Source: Escherichia coli (GTDB lineage Bacteria > Pseudomonadota > Gammaproteobacteria > Enterobacterales > Enterobacteriaceae). Taken from it: a stretch of DNA of 64,000 bases. The position numbers and the translations under genes are program-made. Positions 2,994 to 60,917 of the stretch are shown one piece after another. The notes beneath the pieces are model-generated. The model saw only the letters and a list, made by a program, of their open reading frames with translations. It made no database searches and was not told the origin of the DNA. Location: assembly GCF_003334355.1 (NCBI RefSeq), contig NZ_QOWP01000005.1; one strand, given 5' to 3'. Within the stretch, counting starts at the first letter, position 1. Each line of letters starts with the position of its first letter.

Positions 2994-5018
<2,025 letters not shown>

Positions 5019-5025
5019 TCAATGC

Positions 5026-5050
5026 TAAAAACCCCCGACAAGCGGGGGTT
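5026..5050 (-). terminator. Hairpin + T-run between zipA and ligA (minus-strand sense)
   Basis: Minus-strand reading aacccccgcttgtcgggggttttt; lies about 17 nt upstream of the ligA start codon. Confidence 0.6.
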
Positions 5051-5079
5051 CGAAGAGGAGTTAATTTGCCTTAAGTGTA

Positions 5080-6066
5080 TCAGGCGTTGGCGTCTTTGAC
5101 TTCGCGGATGATGTCCTGGTACTCGCGCAATTTCTGCGGAGTCATCATACGGCGCTGATCGTCAAGCACGACACCGCCCACTTCATCGGCAATATGCTGC
5201 GCAGATTGCAGCATCAGCTTGAAGTTCTGCAGCTCGTCACCGTAAGACGGTACCTGCATAAAGATAGTGACACCCGGAGTAGTGAAATCCTTCATTTCAG
5301 GATCAAAGGTTCCCGGTTTCACCATATTCGCCAGGCTGAATAACGCCGGGCCGCTGCCATCCGGGCTAAGATGACGATGGTAAATATTCATATCGCCAAA
5401 AATGAAGCCCGCTTGTTGAATGCTGTTAAGAAGCAGTTCACCGTTTAGCTCGCTACCGTGATGCGCCGCGACGTTCATGATAATCACCGCTTCTTTGCGC
5501 TTCGGTTTATCCATAACTGGAGCCGGTTCCGCTACAGGCTCAGGCTGTGGTGCCGCTACGGGTTCTGCAGGCTGGAAAGCCTGTTGTGCCGGTTGCGGTG
5601 CTGAATGCACAGGCTGCGGCGCTGGCGCGACCTGTGGCGAAACTGGCTGCTGCAACGGCTGTTCAGGCTGCGGCTGATAGGCAGGCTGCTGCACCGGCTG
5701 CGCTGGATGCGGAGCATGTTGCGGCGGTACCTGCGCTTCAGGCGGCTGCTGGACCGGTTGACGCGGCTGCGCAGACGCATAAGGCGGTTGGTACTGGTGT
5801 TGCGGCGACGGACGAGCAGCCTCATGCTCCTGAGCGTTAGCCGGGGCATGATTCACGCGGTGAACACGAACCTCACCAACGCCCTCATCATCTTCGACAT
5901 CCTCGTCATAAGAATCGTCGTCACGTTTTGACTTCATTCGTTTTAATGGCCGATCGCGGAACATAGAAGATCGTTCTTTACGGCTGGTCCAGAAACCATG
6001 TACCAGTAAAGCGATTATGGCGATCGCGCCAACAATGATTAATATCAGACGCAAATCCTGCATCAT
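5080..6066 (-). CDS. zipA: Cell division protein ZipA (FtsZ membrane anchor)
   Basis: Start set at [22 protein letters not shown] (N-terminal TM); long P/Q-rich linker; C-terminal FtsZ-binding domain; 328 aa. Confidence 0.93.
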
Positions 6067-6295
6067 TATATTCTCTGTTGTTCTAACACCTTGCCACCAC
6101 GGCAAACATTTACTCACTAAGAGTATTTGCCGATTACCTCAAGTGCAAGTGCACTATTAACTTTCACAGCACAAAGATAGATGAAATCGTGCTTTTTGCT
6201 GTTTTTTCGAACATATCCTAACTGTCCATTGCGCAATTACCCGGTAAAATACGCAGAATTTTCCCGGGATTGGTCAAAAGGAGCTCATCCTGATT

Positions 6296-7057
6296 ATGGT
6301 TTCATCATTCACATCTGCCCCACGCAGCGGTTTTTACTATTTTGCGCAAGGCTGGAAGCTCGTCTCGCAACCTGGGATTCGGCGTTTCGTTATTTTACCG
6401 CTGCTGGTCAATATTTTGTTGATGGGGGGCGCATTCTGGTGGCTCTTTACGCAACTCGATGTCTGGATCCCGACTCTCATGAGTTATGTTCCGGACTGGT
6501 TACAATGGCTGAGCTATCTGTTGTGGCCCCTGGCTGTCATCTCTGTGCTGTTAGTGTTTGGCTATTTCTTCTCAACGATTGCTAACTGGATTGCCGCTCC
6601 GTTCAACGGTTTATTGGCTGAACAACTGGAAGCACGATTGACTGGCGCTACACCGCCAGATACCGGGATTTTCGGTATCATGAAAGATGTGCCGCGAATC
6701 ATGAAACGCGAATGGCAAAAATTTGCCTGGTATCTGCCACGCGCAATTGTATTGCTAATTCTTTACTTCATCCCTGGTATTGGGCAAACCGTCGCGCCGG
6801 TACTGTGGTTCCTGTTTAGCGCCTGGATGTTAGCCATCCAGTATTGCGATTACCCCTTCGATAACCACAAAGTGCCGTTTAAAGAGATGCGCACCGCCCT
6901 GCGCACACGCAAAATCACCAATATGCAGTTTGGTGCTTTAACCAGCCTGTTTACGATGATCCCGCTGCTTAATCTGTTCATCATGCCCGTTGCCGTTTGT
7001 GGCGCGACGGCGATGTGGGTCGATTGCTATCGCGATAAACACGCGATGTGGCGGTAA
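6296..7057 (+). CDS. cysZ: Sulfate transporter CysZ
   Basis: 253 aa polytopic membrane protein; immediately upstream of cysK. Confidence 0.93.
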
Positions 7058-7241
7058 CAATCTACCGGTTATTTTGTAAACCGTTTGTGTGAAACAGGGG
7101 TGGCTTATGCCGCCCCTTATTCCATCTTGCATGTCATTATTTCCCTTCTGTATATAGATATGCTAAATCCTTACTTCCGCATATTCTCTGAGCGGGTATG
7201 CTACCTGTTGTATCCCAATTTCATACAGTTAAGGACAGGCC
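7058..7241 (+). promoter_or_regulatory. cysK upstream control region (expected CysB-dependent promoter)
   Basis: AT-rich 184-bp leader upstream of cysK; CysB regulation is established knowledge, sites not mapped here. Confidence 0.4.
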
Positions 7242-8213
7242 ATGAGTAAGATTTTTGAAGATAACTCGCTGACTATCGGTCACACGCCGCTGGTTCGCCT
7301 GAATCGCATCGGTAACGGACGCATTCTGGCGAAGGTGGAATCTCGTAACCCCAGCTTCAGCGTTAAGTGCCGTATCGGTGCCAACATGATTTGGGATGCC
7401 GAAAAGCGCGGCGTGCTGAAACCAGGCGTTGAACTGGTTGAACCGACCAGCGGTAATACCGGGATTGCACTGGCCTATGTAGCTGCCGCTCGCGGTTACA
7501 AACTCACCCTGACCATGCCAGAAACCATGAGTATTGAACGCCGCAAGCTGCTGAAAGCGTTAGGTGCAAACCTGGTGCTGACGGAAGGTGCTAAAGGCAT
7601 GAAAGGCGCAATCCAAAAAGCAGAAGAAATTGTCGCCAGCAATCCAGAGAAATACCTGCTGCTGCAACAATTCAGCAATCCGGCAAACCCTGAAATTCAC
7701 GAAAAGACCACCGGTCCGGAGATATGGGAAGATACCGACGGTCAGGTTGATGTATTTATTGCTGGCGTTGGGACTGGCGGTACGCTGACTGGCGTCAGCC
7801 GCTACATTAAAGGCACCAAAGGCAAGACCGATCTTATCTCTGTCGCCGTTGAGCCAACCGATTCTCCAGTTATCGCCCAGGCGCTGGCAGGTGAAGAGAT
7901 TAAACCTGGCCCGCATAAAATTCAGGGTATTGGCGCTGGTTTTATCCCGGCTAACCTCGATCTCAAGCTGGTCGATAAAGTCATTGGCATCACCAATGAA
8001 GAAGCGATTTCTACCGCGCGTCGTCTGATGGAAGAAGAAGGTATTCTTGCAGGTATCTCTTCTGGAGCAGCTGTTGCCGCGGCGTTGAAACTACAAGAAG
8101 ATGAAAGCTTTACCAACAAGAATATTGTGGTTATTCTACCATCATCGGGTGAGCGTTATTTAAGCACCGCATTGTTTGCCGATCTCTTCACTGAGAAAGA
8201 ATTGCAACAGTAA
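7242..8213 (+). CDS. cysK: Cysteine synthase A (O-acetylserine sulfhydrylase A)
   Basis: 323 aa PLP-dependent fold; N-terminus [20 protein letters not shown]. Confidence 0.97.
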
Positions 8214-8235
8214 TGCCAGCTTGTTAAAAATGCGT

Positions 8236-8264
8236 AAAAAAGCACCTTTTTAGGTGCTTTTTTG
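8236..8264 (+). terminator. Rho-independent terminator after cysK
   Basis: aaaaaagcacctttttaggtgcttttttg: hairpin plus T-run. Confidence 0.8.
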
Positions 8265-8596
8265 TGGCCTGCTTCAAACTTTCGCCCCTCCTGGCATTGA
8301 TTCAGCCTGTCGGAACTGGTATTTAACCAGACTAATTATTTTGATGCGCGAAATTAATCGTTACAGGAAAAGCCAAAGCTGAATCGATTTTATGATTTGG
8401 TTCAATTCTTCCTTTAGCGGCATAATGTTTAATGACGTACGAAACGTCAGCGGTCAACACCCGCCAGCAATGGACTGTATTGCGCTCTTCGTGCGTCGCG
8501 TCTGTTAAAAACTGGCGCTAACAATACAGGCTAAAGTCGAACCGCCAGGCTAGACTTTAGTTCCACAACACTAAACCTATAAGTTGGGGAAATACA
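8265..8596 (+). promoter_or_regulatory. ptsH-ptsI-crr upstream regulatory region
   Basis: 332-bp non-coding leader; perfect inverted repeat TGACGT-N5-ACGTCA at 8433-8449 and a CRP-like half-site pair near 8389-8410; ptsH regulation by CRP/Mlc is established knowledge, exact sites are inferred. Confidence 0.4.
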
Positions 8597-8854
8597 ATGT
8601 TCCAGCAAGAAGTTACCATTACCGCTCCGAACGGTCTGCACACCCGCCCTGCTGCCCAGTTTGTAAAAGAAGCTAAGGGCTTCACTTCTGAAATTACTGT
8701 GACTTCCAACGGCAAAAGCGCCAGCGCGAAAAGCCTGTTTAAACTGCAGACTCTGGGCCTGACTCAAGGTACCGTTGTGACTATCTCCGCAGAAGGCGAA
8801 GACGAGCAGAAAGCGGTTGAACATCTGGTTAAACTGATGGCGGAACTCGAGTAA
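8597..8854 (+). CDS. ptsH: Phosphocarrier protein HPr
   Basis: 85 aa; active-site His15 in [10 protein letters not shown]; Ser46 region SASAKSLF. Confidence 0.97.
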
Positions 8855-8898
8855 TTTCCCGGGTTCTTTTAAAAATCAGTCACAAGTAAGGTAGGGTT

Positions 8899-10626
8899 AT
8901 GATTTCAGGCATTTTAGCATCCCCGGGTATCGCTTTCGGTAAAGCTCTGCTTCTGAAAGAAGACGAAATTGTCATTGACCGGAAAAAAATTTCTGCCGAC
9001 CAGGTTGATCAGGAAGTTGAACGTTTTCTGAGCGGTCGTGCCAAGGCATCAGCCCAGCTGGAAACGATCAAAACGAAAGCTGGTGAAACGTTCGGTGAAG
9101 AAAAAGAAGCCATCTTTGAAGGGCATATTATGCTGCTCGAAGATGAGGAGCTGGAGCAGGAAATCATAGCCCTGATTAAAGATAAGCACATGACAGCTGA
9201 CGCAGCTGCTCATGAAGTTATCGAAGGTCAGGCTTCTGCCCTGGAAGAGCTGGATGATGAATACCTGAAAGAACGTGCGGCTGACGTACGTGATATCGGT
9301 AAGCGCCTGCTGCGCAACATCCTGGGCCTGAAGATTATCGACCTGAGCGCCATTCAGGATGAAGTCATTCTGGTTGCCGCTGACCTGACGCCGTCCGAAA
9401 CCGCACAGCTGAACCTGAAGAAGGTGCTGGGTTTCATCACCGACGCGGGTGGCCGTACTTCCCACACCTCTATCATGGCGCGTTCTCTGGAACTACCTGC
9501 TATCGTGGGTACCGGTAGCGTCACCTCTCAGGTGAAAAATGACGACTATCTGATTCTGGATGCCGTAAATAATCAGGTTTACGTCAATCCAACCAACGAA
9601 GTTATTGATAAAATGCGCGCTGTTCAGGAGCAAGTGGCTTCTGAAAAAGCAGAGCTTGCTAAACTGAAAGATCTGCCAGCTATTACGCTGGACGGTCACC
9701 AGGTAGAAGTATGCGCTAACATTGGTACGGTTCGTGACGTTGAAGGTGCAGAGCGTAACGGCGCTGAAGGCGTTGGTCTGTATCGTACTGAGTTCCTGTT
9801 CATGGACCGCGACGCACTGCCCACTGAAGAAGAACAGTTTGCTGCTTACAAAGCAGTGGCTGAAGCGTGTGGCTCGCAAGCGGTTATCGTTCGTACCATG
9901 GACATCGGCGGCGACAAAGAGCTGCCATACATGAACTTCCCGAAAGAAGAGAACCCGTTCCTCGGCTGGCGCGCTATCCGTATCGCGATGGATCGTAAAG
10001 AGATCCTGCGCGATCAGCTCCGCGCTATCCTGCGTGCCTCGGCTTTCGGTAAATTGCGCATTATGTTCCCGATGATCATCTCTGTTGAAGAAGTGCGTGC
10101 ACTGCGCAAAGAGATCGAAATCTACAAACAGGAACTGCGCGACGAAGGTAAAGCGTTTGACGAGTCAATTGAAATCGGCGTAATGGTGGAAACACCGGCT
10201 GCCGCAACAATTGCACGTCATTTAGCCAAAGAAGTTGATTTCTTTAGTATCGGCACCAATGATTTAACGCAGTACACTCTGGCAGTTGACCGTGGTAATG
10301 ATATGATTTCACACCTTTACCAGCCAATGTCACCGTCCGTGCTGAACTTGATCAAGCAAGTTATTGATGCTTCTCATGCTGAAGGCAAATGGACTGGCAT
10401 GTGTGGTGAGCTTGCTGGCGATGAACGTGCTACACTTCTGTTGCTGGGGATGGGTCTGGACGAATTCTCTATGAGCGCCATTTCTATCCCGCGCATTAAG
10501 AAGATTATCCGTAACACGAACTTCGAAGATGCGAAGGTGTTAGCAGAGCAGGCTCTTGCTCAACCGACAACGGACGAGTTAATGACGCTGGTTAACAAGT
10601 TCATTGAAGAAAAAACAATCTGCTAA
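8899..10626 (+). CDS. ptsI: PTS Enzyme I (phosphoenolpyruvate-protein phosphotransferase)
   Basis: 575 aa; PEP-utilising enzyme domains; operon position between ptsH and crr. Confidence 0.97.
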
Positions 10627-11190: not shown

Positions 11191-11221
11191 AAAAATGGCG
11201 CCCATCGGCGCCATTTTTTTA
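11191..11221. terminator. Bidirectional rho-independent terminator shared by crr and convergent pdxK
   Basis: aaaaatggcgcccatcggcgccattttttt: perfect hairpin flanked by A-run and T-run. Confidence 0.8.
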
Positions 11222-12070
11222 TGCTTCCGCCAGCGGCGGCAAAATCAATTCATCGCTCTCATGCTGCTGGGTGTAGCGCATCACTTCCAGTACGCGCAAC
11301 CCCGCTCGGTGCACTGCATCGGTTAACGCCTTCCCTTTCAGCAAGCCACTGATGAGCTGAGCACAAAACAGGTCGCCAGTCCCTTTCAGGTCGGTTTTTA
11401 CCCGTGAATGGGAAATGACATTCACGCTGTCGGCAGTGACCACCACAACCTGCATCTCCTGATTTTCTTCATTACCGGAGGCGCTGGTAACCACCACCCA
11501 TTTTAATGTGTCTGAAAGCAGACTTTTTGCGGCAGCAATGGCACTGTCGAGATCGCGGCAATTTTTACCGGTCAGGATTTCCAACTCAAAGATATTGGGG
11601 GTAATTCCCTGCGCCAGCGGCAGTAAATATTGTCGATACGCTTCGGGAAGGTCAGGTTTGACATAAATTCCGCTATCAATATCGCCAATCACCGGATCGA
11701 CCATGATCAATAGGTCAGGATGGTCTTTGCGTAGCGCAGTCAGCCACTCGGCAAGGATTTTGATTTGCGATGCCGTTCCCATATAGCCCGTGGTTACAGC
11801 ACGAAGTTGGCGCAGCGCATCACGCTCCTGAAGCGCACGCAAATAGCCGCTAAACCATTCGTCCGGAATCGCACCACCGTAGAAAGTGTCATAATGCGGC
11901 GTATTGCTCAGCAATACCGTCGGCACGGCAAAGACATTCAGGCCGTTCTGTTTGATAGCAGGCACGGCAATGCTGTTGCCCACGCTGCCGTAAACCACCT
12001 GCGACTGCACGGCGACGATATCCGCCTGCAGTGCCCTACTCTTATCGTTAAACAACAACAAACTACTCAT
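11219..12070 (-). CDS. pdxK: Pyridoxal/pyridoxine/pyridoxamine kinase
   Basis: 283 aa ribokinase-like fold; N-terminus [32 protein letters not shown]. Confidence 0.93.
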
Positions 12071-12106
12071 TTAATTTTTTCTCCTTGCCGATGATCCTCA
12101 TCGTAA

Positions 12107-12149
<43 letters not shown>

Positions 12150-12174
12150 CACAAAACAAGGATAAGGTAATTCA

Positions 12175-12549
12175 ATGAAGAAAATCATTTGTCTGGTCAT
12201 TACACTACTAATGACACTCCCCGTTTACGCGAAGTTAACTGCCCATGAAGAAGCCCGCATCAACGCCATGCTGGAGGGATTAGCACAGAAAAAGGATTTG
12301 ATATTTGTGCGCAACGGTGATGAACATACCTGCTATGAAGCGGTTTCTCATCTGCGTCTGAAGCTCGGCAATACCCGTAACCGCATTGACACTGCCGAGC
12401 AGTTTATTGATAAGGTTGCTTCGTCGTCATCGATTACTGGGAAGCCGTATATTGTGAAGATCCCCGGTAAGAGCGATGAGAACGCACAGCCTTTTTTACA
12501 TGCGTTAATTGCGCAGACGGATAAAACGGTGCCTGCGGAAGGAAATTAA
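12175..12549 (+). CDS. yfeK: Secreted protein of unknown function YfeK
   Basis: 124 aa; N-terminal signal peptide [19 protein letters not shown]. Confidence 0.8.
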
Positions 12550-12581
12550 TCCGCTTTGGGAAGGCATTTACAGGAGGTAAC

Positions 12582-13316
12582 ATGAAAAAACGCTTTATTT
12601 ATCACGATGAAAAATCGAATAAATTTTGGTGGATAGATTACGAAGGGGATAGTTTAGCTGTCAACTATGGCAAGGTAGGTAGTATTGGTAAATTCCAGAC
12701 AAAAGAGTTCGATAATGAAGAACAGTGTCTGAAAGAAGCCAGTAAATTGATTGCCGCAAAAATGAAGAAAGGCTATCAAGAAGATCCAAAGTTTAACTTC
12801 ATGGATCGCTACTATTTTGATGATGAAGAAATTGGGTTACATGTTAAAACGTCACACCCAAACTTCCAGTGCCATTTTACTGATCCACTTTATATGTGTT
12901 GCTGGGATGAAGAATCTCCTTTTGGCAGCGATGAAGGTGCTGATGCTCTAAACGTTCTTGAAAATAGCCTCCGTAAAGAGCCGGATCTGGACTGTGCTGA
13001 TTTCCCTCAAATGTTAATTGAAACTATGTGGGGTATGAAATACATCGCTATGGACAGTATTCTTGAAGAGGATGTTCGTGCGCAATTACTAGTCGATGAA
13101 ATGAGCACTATCCAGAGCAATATGATTACCTACGCAACTGCATTCGGTCAGATTAAAGTCATGGGTAAAATCTCCCATAAACTTAAAAAGATGGGACTCA
13201 ATGCACTAGCGCGTCATCAGCTTACCGCAAAAATTCTTCAATGGGGTGACGGTCAGGACTCACCAATACTTCAAAAAATGATTGATGACCTTACGGCGTT
13301 TCCTCACGAAAATTAA
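12582..13316 (+). CDS. yfeS: WGR-domain protein of unknown function YfeS
   Basis: 244 aa; N-terminal motif FWWIDYEGDSLAVNYGKVGSIGKFQTKEF typical of WGR domains. Confidence 0.8.
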   Translation: MKKRFIYHDEKSNKFWWIDYEGDSLAVNYGKVGSIGKFQTKEFDNEEQCLKEASKLIAAKMKKGYQEDPKFNFMDRYYFDDEEIGLHVKTSHPNFQCHFTDPLYMCCWDEESPFGSDEGADALNVLENSLRKEPDLDCADFPQMLIETMWGMKYIAMDSILEEDVRAQLLVDEMSTIQSNMITYATAFGQIKVMGKISHKLKKMGLNALARHQLTAKILQWGDGQDSPILQKMIDDLTAFPHEN

Positions 13317-13365
13317 ATACTGCATTTGTCGGCAGCAACAACTGTTAAAAAAGTGCGCTTTGTTT

Positions 13366-13470
<105 letters not shown>

Positions 13471-13504
13471 TGCGTTTGTCATCAGTCTCCGATGCTATTA
13501 ATCC

Positions 13505-14416
13505 TTAAATCCCCGCCCCCTGGCTAAAGTGCTCTTCCCCAAACACCCCGGTGGAAAGGTAGCGATCGCCACGATCGCAGATGATCGCCACCACCACCGC
13601 ACCAGGGTTAGCTTTTGCCACCCGCAGTGCTCCGGCAACCGCGCCGCCGGAGCTGACGCCACAGAATATTCCTTCCCGCACCGCCAGTTCGCGCATGGTG
13701 TTTTCCGCATCGCGCTGATGAATATCCAGCACCTCATCCACCAGAGAAGCGTTGAAAATCCCCGGCAGATATTCCGCAGGCCAGCGGCGAATGCCGGGAA
13801 TGCTACTGCCCTCTTCCGGCTGCAGGCCAACAATGGTCACCGGTTTGGATTGTTCGCGCATAAAGCGTGAAACGCCGGTGATAGTGCCGGTTGTTCCCAT
13901 GCTGGAGACAAAATGGGTAATGCGCCCGCCAGTTTGCTGCCAGATTTCCGGCCCGGTAGTGGTGTAATGGGCGTAAGGGTTATCGGGATTATTGAACTGA
14001 TCGAGCAGCTTTCCTTCACCACGATTAGCCATCTCCAGCGCCAGATCGCGCGCACCTTCCATGCCCTGCTCTTTGGTGACAAGAATCAGTTCCGCACCAT
14101 AAGCACGCATCGCCGCACGGCGTTCCTGGCTCATGTTGTCGGGCATCAGCAATTTCATGCGATAGCCTTTAAGCGCGGCAATCATTGCCAGCGCAATGCC
14201 GGTGTTACCACTGGTGGCTTCGATTAACACATCACCCGGTTTAATTTCCCCGCGCTTTTCCGCCTCGACGATCATCGAAAGCGCCGCACGATCTTTTACC
14301 GAACCTGCCGGGTTATTGCCTTCCAGTTTTAACCACACTTCACTGCCGTTATTCGGCCCCATTCGCTGCAACTTCACCAGAGGCGTATTGCCTATTGTTT
14401 GTTCTAATGTACTCAC
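13505..14416 (-). CDS. cysM: Cysteine synthase B (O-acetylserine sulfhydrylase B)
   Basis: 303 aa from a GTG start at 14414-14416 (VSTLEQTIGNTPLVKLQR); the longer track ORF extends into the REP-containing spacer and is rejected. Confidence 0.92.
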   Translation of the reverse strand: MSTLEQTIGNTPLVKLQRMGPNNGSEVWLKLEGNNPAGSVKDRAALSMIVEAEKRGEIKPGDVLIEATSGNTGIALAMIAALKGYRMKLLMPDNMSQERRAAMRAYGAELILVTKEQGMEGARDLALEMANRGEGKLLDQFNNPDNPYAHYTTTGPEIWQQTGGRITHFVSSMGTTGTITGVSRFMREQSKPVTIVGLQPEEGSSIPGIRRWPAEYLPGIFNASLVDEVLDIHQRDAENTMRELAVREGIFCGVSSGGAVAGALRVAKANPGAVVVAIICDRGDRYLSTGVFGEEHFSQGAGI

Positions 14417-35998: not shown

Positions 35999-36183
<185 letters not shown>

Positions 36184-60837: not shown

Positions 60838-60917
60838 GTAGGCCGGATAAGGCGTTAACGCCGCATCCGGCAATGGTGAACGATGCCTGATGCGACGCTC
60901 ACGCGTCTTATCAGGCC
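60838..60917. repeat. REP/BIME pair
   Basis: gtaggccggataaggcgttaacgccgcatccggca and gcctgatgcgacgctcacgcgtcttatcaggcc. Confidence 0.8.

Follow-up and report, generated by a model that had tools for sequence, protein, structure and literature searches.

Tandem, co-oriented arrays that carry recognised immunity families have been described as polyimmunity loci and catalogued together with those families (Zhang et al. 2012, PMC3482391), and a related organisation is found in the recombinase-associated acquired interbacterial defence clusters, rAID-1 (Ross et al., 10.1101/471110). The latter are delimited by a 5′ XerD-like recombinase, at least two co-directional downstream genes, a GC content of at most 41% and repetitive intergenic sequences, with the additional requirement that the recombinase be at least 44% identical to the B. 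fragilis recombinase. Other relatives of the locus considered here are described through the WGR domain, which occurs in PARP1/2/3 and bacterial PARPs along with an ADP-ribosyltransferase domain, in B. fragilis Q64V53 (PDB 2ra8) along with leucine-rich repeats (LRR), and in E. coli MolR/YehH, a family defined by a WGR domain, a long helical region, DUF4132 and a length of more than 1000 aa. The Escherichia coli gene pair yfeK-yfeS, which touches on each of these systems, is already known and annotated. Both genes are among the few of E. coli K-12 still without a function, and a recent annotation effort credits yfeS with a regulator and no inferred function (PMC12356324). New here are the finding that the operon is of mosaic origin, a definition of the C-terminal YfeS domain (YfeS-C) and a testable immunity hypothesis. 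Taken as a whole, we give an even chance to the statement that this is a mosaic, sigma-E-driven two-gene unit in which yfeS is an orphan, immunity-like cassette independent of YfeK. As to its parts, we infer that YfeK and YfeS lack a functional link, and that YfeS may have an immunity-type function is a guess from association.

The window, i.e. the whole stretch of 64,000 nucleotides that was analysed, is an E. coli K-12-like chromosome segment with the gene order ptsI-crr-pdxK-yfeK-yfeS-cysM-cysA, and its positions 11900-13600 are matched at 100% identity by several E. coli chromosomes in RefSeq, in which pdxK, yfeK, yfeS and cysM are annotated. RefSeq labels the yfeK product a 'YfeK family protein' and the yfeS product a 'WGR domain-containing protein'. 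In the ORF list, yfeK (124 aa) occupies positions 12175-12549 and yfeS (244 aa) positions 12582-13316, both on the plus strand. They lie between the divergent upstream neighbour pdxK (11219-12070, minus strand; ORF list and RefSeq annotation) and a REP/BIME cluster at about 13360-13470, which consists of two oppositely oriented REP hairpins (inverted repeats I1 and I2). Beyond it follows the convergent downstream neighbour cysM (13505-14416, minus strand, with a 303-aa annotated product; ORF list and RefSeq), whose stop codon is at 13505-13507. ORF coordinates and inverted repeats thus agree with the first-pass annotation, which had placed a co-oriented pair between pdxK and a REP cluster. It was also right that the two genes are closely spaced, the gap being 32 nt (12550-12581) rather than the 33 nt it gave. 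Its further reading of YfeK as a signal-peptide protein and of YfeS as a 244-aa WGR protein is borne out by an n/h/c layout at the YfeK N-terminus and by a Pfam match to WGR (PF05406) on YfeS residues 9-71 (E = 1.2e-17), and like its author we found no biochemical function for YfeK or YfeS in the literature, where the sole phenotypes among the papers searched are an arrest of growth by excess yfeK (PMC2685091) and the boric-acid sensitivity of a yfeS deletion (PMC11502571). Both are genuine genes rather than chance ORFs, as RefSeq annotates both and both show purifying selection between E. coli and Pseudocitrobacter. An Rfam search of positions 12000-13600 returned no match.

Upstream of yfeK, motif matching located a candidate sigma-E promoter at 12114-12141 on the plus strand, consisting of GAAACTT (-35), a 16-nt spacer and TCAAA (-10). 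It conforms to the GGAACTT-N16-TCAAA type by which the sigma-E regulon is recognised, and AACTT-N16-TCAAA has no other match within the 64-kb window, where 0.14 are expected by chance. Three further E. coli strains carry the candidate promoter without a change, and the corresponding position in Salmonella reads GCAACTT-N16-TCTGA. Published work names yfeKp as sigma-24 dependent (PMC11502571, PMC2685091, PMC3326320), includes yfeK among modelled sigma-E promoters (PMC3326320) and treats yfeKS as an operon of the sigma-E regulon (PMC2685091, PMC11502571). In cell death that follows loss of a restriction-modification system, yfeK and yfeS rise together with rpoE (PMC2685091), and a stalled autotransporter induces both along with degP, rseA and further sigma-E genes, with log2 fold changes of 1.7 for yfeK and 0.9 for yfeS (PMC6850105). 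No terminator-like site was found between the two genes. A sigma-70 promoter scan yielded no convincing yfeS promoter: its lone plus-strand match lies inside yfeK, and matches were no more numerous than in shuffled sequence. As no promoter was identified for yfeS, the gene is presumably transcribed by read-through from the sigma-E promoter of yfeK. The operon in the literature, the sigma-E motif and the lack of a terminator-like site together support the view, already voiced in the first-pass annotation, that in the present strain yfeK and yfeS form one stress-induced transcription unit.

The yfeK half of this unit is an old core gene that descended vertically across the Enterobacteriaceae. 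It was matched in every one of the 5426 complete E. coli genomes, and its product has counterparts in Pseudocitrobacter (85% identity), Klebsiella (77-82%), Salmonella and Citrobacter (both about 73%) and Enterobacter (70%). YfeK belongs to the DUF5329/YfeK family, with Pfam assigning residues 24-115 to DUF5329 (PF17263, E = 5.6e-31) and NCBIfam NF007646 scoring 276.7 bits over a cut-off of 171. Its first 19 residues (12175-12231, plus strand), followed by K, have the layout of a Sec-type signal peptide as judged by eye, without a predictor, and the mature product would be periplasmic. The gene is also a validated target of the sRNA MicA (PMC4618604). With its sigma-E-type promoter, envelope-stress induction, MicA targeting and exported product, yfeK resembles the small periplasmic proteins of the sigma-E regulon. 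A literature search returned no functional report on DUF5329, nor on DUF4240 or DUF4304.

The yfeS half has a different history. It was matched in 1387 of the 5426 complete E. coli genomes (1383 at a coverage of at least 80%), and junction comparison with three empty-site strains delimits a 967-nt accessory segment, positions 12538-13504 on the plus strand, that comprises yfeS and the REPs, the insertion point being exactly the stop codon of yfeK. In the junction alignment of these strains, the yfeS-less allele has the 8 nt CAATAATC in place of the segment, and in O157:H7 SS52, 09-02E and W150 the yfeK stop lies 2 nt from the convergent cysM stop. Two exact 8-nt direct repeats ATTAATCC (repeat family D8, placed by the junction alignment) bound the segment, the left one (12545-12552) holding the yfeK stop codon and the right one (13497-13504) abutting the cysM stop codon. 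Since the left copy contains the stop, YfeK ends in ...PAEGN where the insert is present and in ...PAQ where it is absent. The segment has a GC content of 0.39 (range 0.36-0.43) versus 0.53 for the window. It also contains the Shine-Dalgarno sequence AGGAGG of yfeS, read directly from the DNA at 12572-12577 on the plus strand, 4 nt before the ATG. yfeS is accordingly an accessory, horizontally acquired add-on in about a quarter of strains. A transposon origin was rejected, as no transposase or recombinase is encoded in the 967 nt. A simple deletion between the ATTAATCC repeats was rejected as well, since the empty allele CAATAATC differs from the product expected of it. It is well supported that yfeK and yfeS, co-transcribed in the present strain, were not co-inherited and are part of a mosaic operon. 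That yfeS is expressed along with the sigma-E regulon is probably a consequence of its insertion site rather than of its role, and the experiments done on K-12 yfeS apply to a gene missing from three-quarters of E. coli strains.

Given that the genes were not co-inherited, and that YfeK is exported but YfeS carries no export signal, it should not be taken for granted that the two share a function. We consider it highly improbable that the two form a functional envelope-stress module, for instance a sensor and its effector or a toxin and its antidote. Such a module would account for two co-transcribed and co-induced genes (PMC2685091, PMC6850105) that are 32 nt apart and whose adjacency recurs in Pseudocitrobacter, and the finding that excess yfeK expression arrests growth while excess yfeS is harmless (PMC2685091) bears a superficial likeness to toxin and antidote. 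It is, however, at odds with the fact that about 74% of E. coli genomes, like the sampled loci of Salmonella and Klebsiella, have yfeK but no yfeS. In these two genera, other genes fill the slot 3′ of yfeK: a SnoaL-like gene in Klebsiella and, in Salmonella, a 116-codon ORF of doubtful reality. In other phyla, none of the YfeS homologues at the sampled loci has a DUF5329 gene as its neighbour. Nor does the pair have the two co-inherited cytoplasmic partners of a type II toxin-antitoxin system, given the 74% of genomes with yfeK alone and the signal peptide of YfeK.

Within the family, the history of the segment can be followed through Pseudocitrobacter, where the order crr-EAL-pdxK-SnoaL-yfeK-yfeS-REP-cysM is found with the same junction repeats as in K-12. 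A recent insertion confined to E. coli was dropped as an explanation, since Pseudocitrobacter has the same insertion with the same junctions. Plain vertical inheritance from a common ancestor fits poorly too, because yfeS is far less diverged at synonymous sites than the genes that flank it. Compared gene by gene between K-12 and Pseudocitrobacter, yfeS shows 95.0% nucleotide identity (dS 0.19, dN/dS 0.13), and the flanking genes span dS values of 0.44-1.27: cysM has 91.0% identity (dS 0.44, dN/dS 0.032), crr 89.6% (dS 0.63, dN/dS 0.008) and yfeK 79.7% (dS 1.27, dN/dS 0.067). A sliding comparison of the two genomes peaks at 93-100% identity within yfeS and drops to 61-75% towards the 5′ end of yfeK. 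From these patterns we infer that the segment probably entered the family a single time from outside and was subsequently transferred between Pseudocitrobacter and Escherichia lineages into the same site.

Where present, yfeS is under purifying selection. This bears on the possibility, which we rate as quite unlikely, that yfeS in E. coli is a neutral, decaying passenger without current function. The gene is absent from most strains, is interrupted by IS elements (ISVsa5, ISKpn26, IS1203, IS1A) in several E. coli genomes and is truncated in Shigella, and its excess expression had no effect (PMC2685091), all of which would suit a passenger. The dN/dS of 0.13 between E. coli and Pseudocitrobacter and the 1383 genomes that retain yfeS at 80% coverage or more speak against decay. 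So does a deletion phenotype: cells without yfeS are more sensitive to boric acid, with an MIC of 45-50 mM versus 100 mM, and complementation was partial only (PMC11502571).

In a structure predicted with very high confidence (pLDDT 96.1, pTM 0.92), residues 1-70 of YfeS form a WGR domain of four strands and one helix, against which an all-helical domain (residues 72-244) is packed. In the DNA, the WGR domain (residues 1-71) corresponds to about 12582-12794 and the C-terminal domain to 12795-13313, both on the plus strand. Profile match and fold together make YfeS a member of the WGR family, with the signature YGK in place of WGR. The helical domain had no match in Pfam, NCBIfam or PDB sequences, and YfeS-C is a previously undescribed domain and a candidate for the domain databases. 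A profile built on it, run over 1.84 billion representatives, recovers at least 643 clusters at 50% identity, and it occurs combined with WGR in proteins of about 240 aa, by itself in proteins of about 170-190 aa, or with two WGR copies. Among 20 proteins, it was fused to DUF4253 in four and to DUF4240 in one, and a weak match to Imm26 (E = 0.15) was also seen. None of these partners is an established immunity domain. Three motifs of YfeS are invariant, TSHP (T90, H92, P93), PFGSDEGxD (113-121) and AFGQIKITG (187-195), and the clustering of their residues suggests a conserved ligand-binding or catalytic site. As it has no export signal, YfeS is probably cytoplasmic.

These features set YfeS apart from the described WGR proteins. 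Pfam finds only WGR in it, i.e. neither the ADP-ribosyltransferase domain of the PARPs nor the leucine-rich repeats of Q64V53, and the all-helical C-terminal domain has no PARP match, so that YfeS is not a PARP. It is not a MolR/YehH protein either, for its 244 aa contain no DUF4132, and the partner of its WGR domain is the new helical one. Standalone forms of YfeS-C are often called 'MolR family regulator' in AFDB, a database label without support here. We regard it as unlikely that YfeS acts in the cytoplasm as a stress factor or regulator that binds nucleic acids, its WGR domain reading DNA or RNA ends or lesions as in PARPs and its helical domain signalling or recruiting. The WGR fold and the conserved motifs would allow such a role, yet no helix-turn-helix, PARP catalytic domain or DUF4132 accompanies the WGR, the motif reads YGK, the induction of yfeS is already accounted for by the sigma-E promoter, and the 'MolR' names are unverified. 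A patchy, accessory distribution would also be unusual for a housekeeping repair factor.

That distribution reaches far beyond the enterobacteria. In a protein search with YfeS, Escherichia/Shigella sequences at about 80-98% identity are followed by a metagenome protein at 65% and then by relatives at no more than 58%, among them Paenibacillus, Dysgonomonas, Lysinibacillus and Clostridium. Bacteroides, Neisseria and Fusobacterium, likewise at up to 58%, are also among the closest non-enterobacterial homologues. When one genome from each of 100,044 species was scanned, 347 YfeS loci came up. They fall in Paenibacillus, Bacillus, Sporosarcina, Bacteroides, Dysgonomonas, Palleniella, Porphyromonas, Flavobacterium, Fusobacterium, Neisseria, Eikenella and Pseudomonas, as well as in Clostridia, Spirochaetes and one methanogen MAG. 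From the Enterobacteriaceae, the scan returned only a Pseudocitrobacter MAG (94%) and a fragment in Escherichia sp. MOD1-EC7003.

Many of these homologues sit in gene arrays. On four human-gut metagenome contigs (L006-L009), a 54%-identical homologue lies in long arrays of small, co-oriented, low-GC genes that include Imm10, Imm19, Barstar, SUKH, Macro, DUF4304 and DUF6678. The array directly follows a tyrosine recombinase in L007 and L008, and the intergenic regions contain repeated, attC-like elements of the form GCTAACAA...stem...CATTAGCA. Elsewhere, a Paenibacillus copy stands beside Imm10, DUF2199, DUF2750, GrpB and NUDIX, where DUF2750 corresponds to Imm16 in PMC3482391; a Lysinibacillus copy lies near a SUKH+Imm51 protein, and a further array (L013) contains WapI. 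Of 65 loci with an ORF on the match, 27 are in runs of at least four co-oriented small ORFs and 14 in runs of at least six. In 19 of the 65 (about 29%) the homologue is solo amid housekeeping genes, as in E. coli, for example inside the trp operon of Dysgonomonas or beside pth. Raw Pfam counts, taken without a matched random-gene control, gave, among the 20 commonest families listed, ankyrin (5), SUKH (3-4), Imm68 (2), Imm51 (2) and DUF4253 (2) for 190 flanking ORFs at 50 non-redundant loci. Counted in the same raw way, 119 ORFs from 16 arrays gave, again among the families listed, ankyrin (4), DUF4303 (3-4), DUF1963 (3), GrpB (3), DUF2262 (3), DUF6714 (3), SUKH (2-3) and Imm68 (2).

These neighbourhoods are the sole evidence bearing on function. 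The homologues share tandem, co-oriented arrays with recognised immunity families, and it is in this respect that the family resembles polyimmunity loci and rAID-1. The arrays are low in GC, some follow a tyrosine recombinase and carry attC-like repeats, and they are held in common with Imm10, Imm19, Imm51, Imm68, SUKH, Barstar, WapI, Macro and ankyrin; the family as a whole is patchy across phyla and occurs also as solo orphans. Leaving recombinase identity aside, L006, L007 and L009 show the features of rAID-1. The E. coli copy differs in being a single gene with neither a recombinase nor such attC-like repeats, and it stands outside any array of immunity genes; the E. coli locus is not an rAID-1 cluster. 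Immunity members are also expected immediately downstream of a cognate toxin, an arrangement that was not seen in the loci scanned. None of eight large upstream neighbours examined was a toxin (they included an S-layer protein, a histidine kinase, a TonB receptor, GyrA and BrxC), and no toxin domain appeared among the Pfam families listed for the 190 flanking ORFs. The accessible text of the immunity-family catalogue (PMC3482391) mentions no WGR and does not include the YfeS family among its named Imm families, and a literature search for a link of WGR to immunity proteins found none. The strongly conserved polar motifs of YfeS are atypical of binding-type, fast-evolving immunity proteins. In addition, sensitivity to boric acid, the sole phenotype on record for yfeS (PMC11502571), does not obviously point to immunity.

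One of these neighbours points in another direction. In a Clostridia MAG (L089), a YfeS-like ORF directly precedes brxC of a BREX system. Together with the existence of PHROG families that contain WGR and the behaviour of yfeS as a mobile cassette, this would be expected if YfeS belonged to anti-phage defence or another mobile-element conflict rather than to immunity against interbacterial toxins. We allow this only a slim chance, since the PHROG matches of YfeS cover the WGR domain only, no PADLOC family matched YfeK or YfeS at E values up to 1, and the E. coli locus has no gene for a partner effector.

Returning to yfeS as an orphan immunity-like cassette, the locus could work as follows. 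Envelope stress would activate sigma-E, and RNA polymerase would start at yfeKp and read through yfeK into the inserted yfeS, which would be translated from its own Shine-Dalgarno site. YfeK would then pass to the periplasm and YfeS remain in the cytoplasm as one rigid unit, with the WGR domain packed on the helical domain. Rather than being the working partner of YfeK, YfeS would bind an incoming interbacterial toxin or reverse its action; the WGR domain in YfeS is the reason to think that this toxin might act on nucleic acids. Going further, the YfeS family might be an unrecognised, widely mobile class of immunity or repair proteins against nucleic-acid-acting or ADP-ribosylating interbacterial toxins that is carried in integron-like polyimmunity arrays. 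In E. coli and Pseudocitrobacter it would have been captured behind a sigma-E promoter, which would place a cytoplasmic protection under a switch that is thrown when an attack damages the envelope, a broader reading that we put forward as speculative and rather unlikely. The link to polyimmunity arrays makes it cheap to ask experimentally whether YfeS protects against delivered toxins. Should an immunity role fail, what remains is an ordinary, annotated gene pair without a function.

Between yfeS and cysM, the inserted segment carries a further published feature. The sequence gcaacaactgttaaa, at 13335-13349 on the plus strand, matches a MarA ChIP-seq site reported in PMC5684230. As for the neighbouring REP cluster, a 1.7-kb query that includes it had a median of 39 matching places in an E. 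coli genome.

The 967-nt yfeS/REP insertion, which lies between the stop codon of yfeK and the convergent cysM gene, is bounded by an exact 8-nt direct repeat, ATTAATCC, whose two copies (12545-12552 and 13497-13504) coincide exactly with the two insertion ends. Strains without yfeS carry CAATAATC at the corresponding position of the empty allele. No transposase or recombinase was found within the inserted segment. Directly past the yfeS stop codon and still within the insertion, positions 13335-13349 match the published sequence (gcaacaactgttaaa) of a strong MarA ChIP-seq site, 'yfeS><cysM', reported in ETEC (PMC5684230); the 3′ ends of both flanking genes, yfeS and cysM, meet at this site. 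Rfam matches in the window comprised a pair of tRNAs with an RtT element after them at its start (1-311) and two matches to naRNA4, a REP-derived nucleoid-associated RNA (36049-36130 and 60841-60917), none of them close to yfeK-yfeS.

The accessory gene yfeS is itself interrupted by ISVsa5, ISKpn26, IS1203 or IS1A in several E. coli strains (matches H1-H7 and H9), with an IS1203 insertion common to five genomes among the matches listed. Where the upstream core gene yfeK is of the K-12 type, yfeS is almost always present as well (1427 vs 1387 genomes). Within E. coli, yfeK is unusually divergent; 1805 records show only 90-95% identity to the K-12 allele of this gene (12175-12549), and the copy in the empty-site strain O157:H7 SS52 (L001, 3500-3867) is annotated as a frameshifted pseudogene. 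The slot 3′ of yfeK also varies among Enterobacteriaceae, being occupied by a SnoaL-like gene in Klebsiella (L017, 3898-4293) and by a questionable 116-codon ORF in Salmonella (L016, 3876-4226), while in Pseudocitrobacter a SnoaL-like gene is located upstream of yfeK rather than after it (L103, 3481-3888).

Homologues of YfeS were also found elsewhere. In a human-gut metagenome contig (L006), the homologue resides in a recombinase-headed array whose gene cassettes are separated by intergenic GCTAACAA-stem-CATTAGCA repeats (e.g., 4917-5000 and 5730-5803), reminiscent of integron attC sites, a likeness described for rAID-1 clusters, i.e., recombinase-associated acquired interbacterial defence clusters (Ross et al., bioRxiv 10.1101/471110). 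A Clostridia MAG (L089, about 4900-9503) encodes a 358-aa YfeS-like ORF with the BREX gene brxC directly downstream, the latter identified by an NCBIfam score of 1170 bits. Finally, a homologue with 49% identity is present in an archaeal Methanomassiliicoccaceae MAG from a termite-gut-type dataset (L054, 4008-4712), the result of transfer between domains or else of faulty binning.
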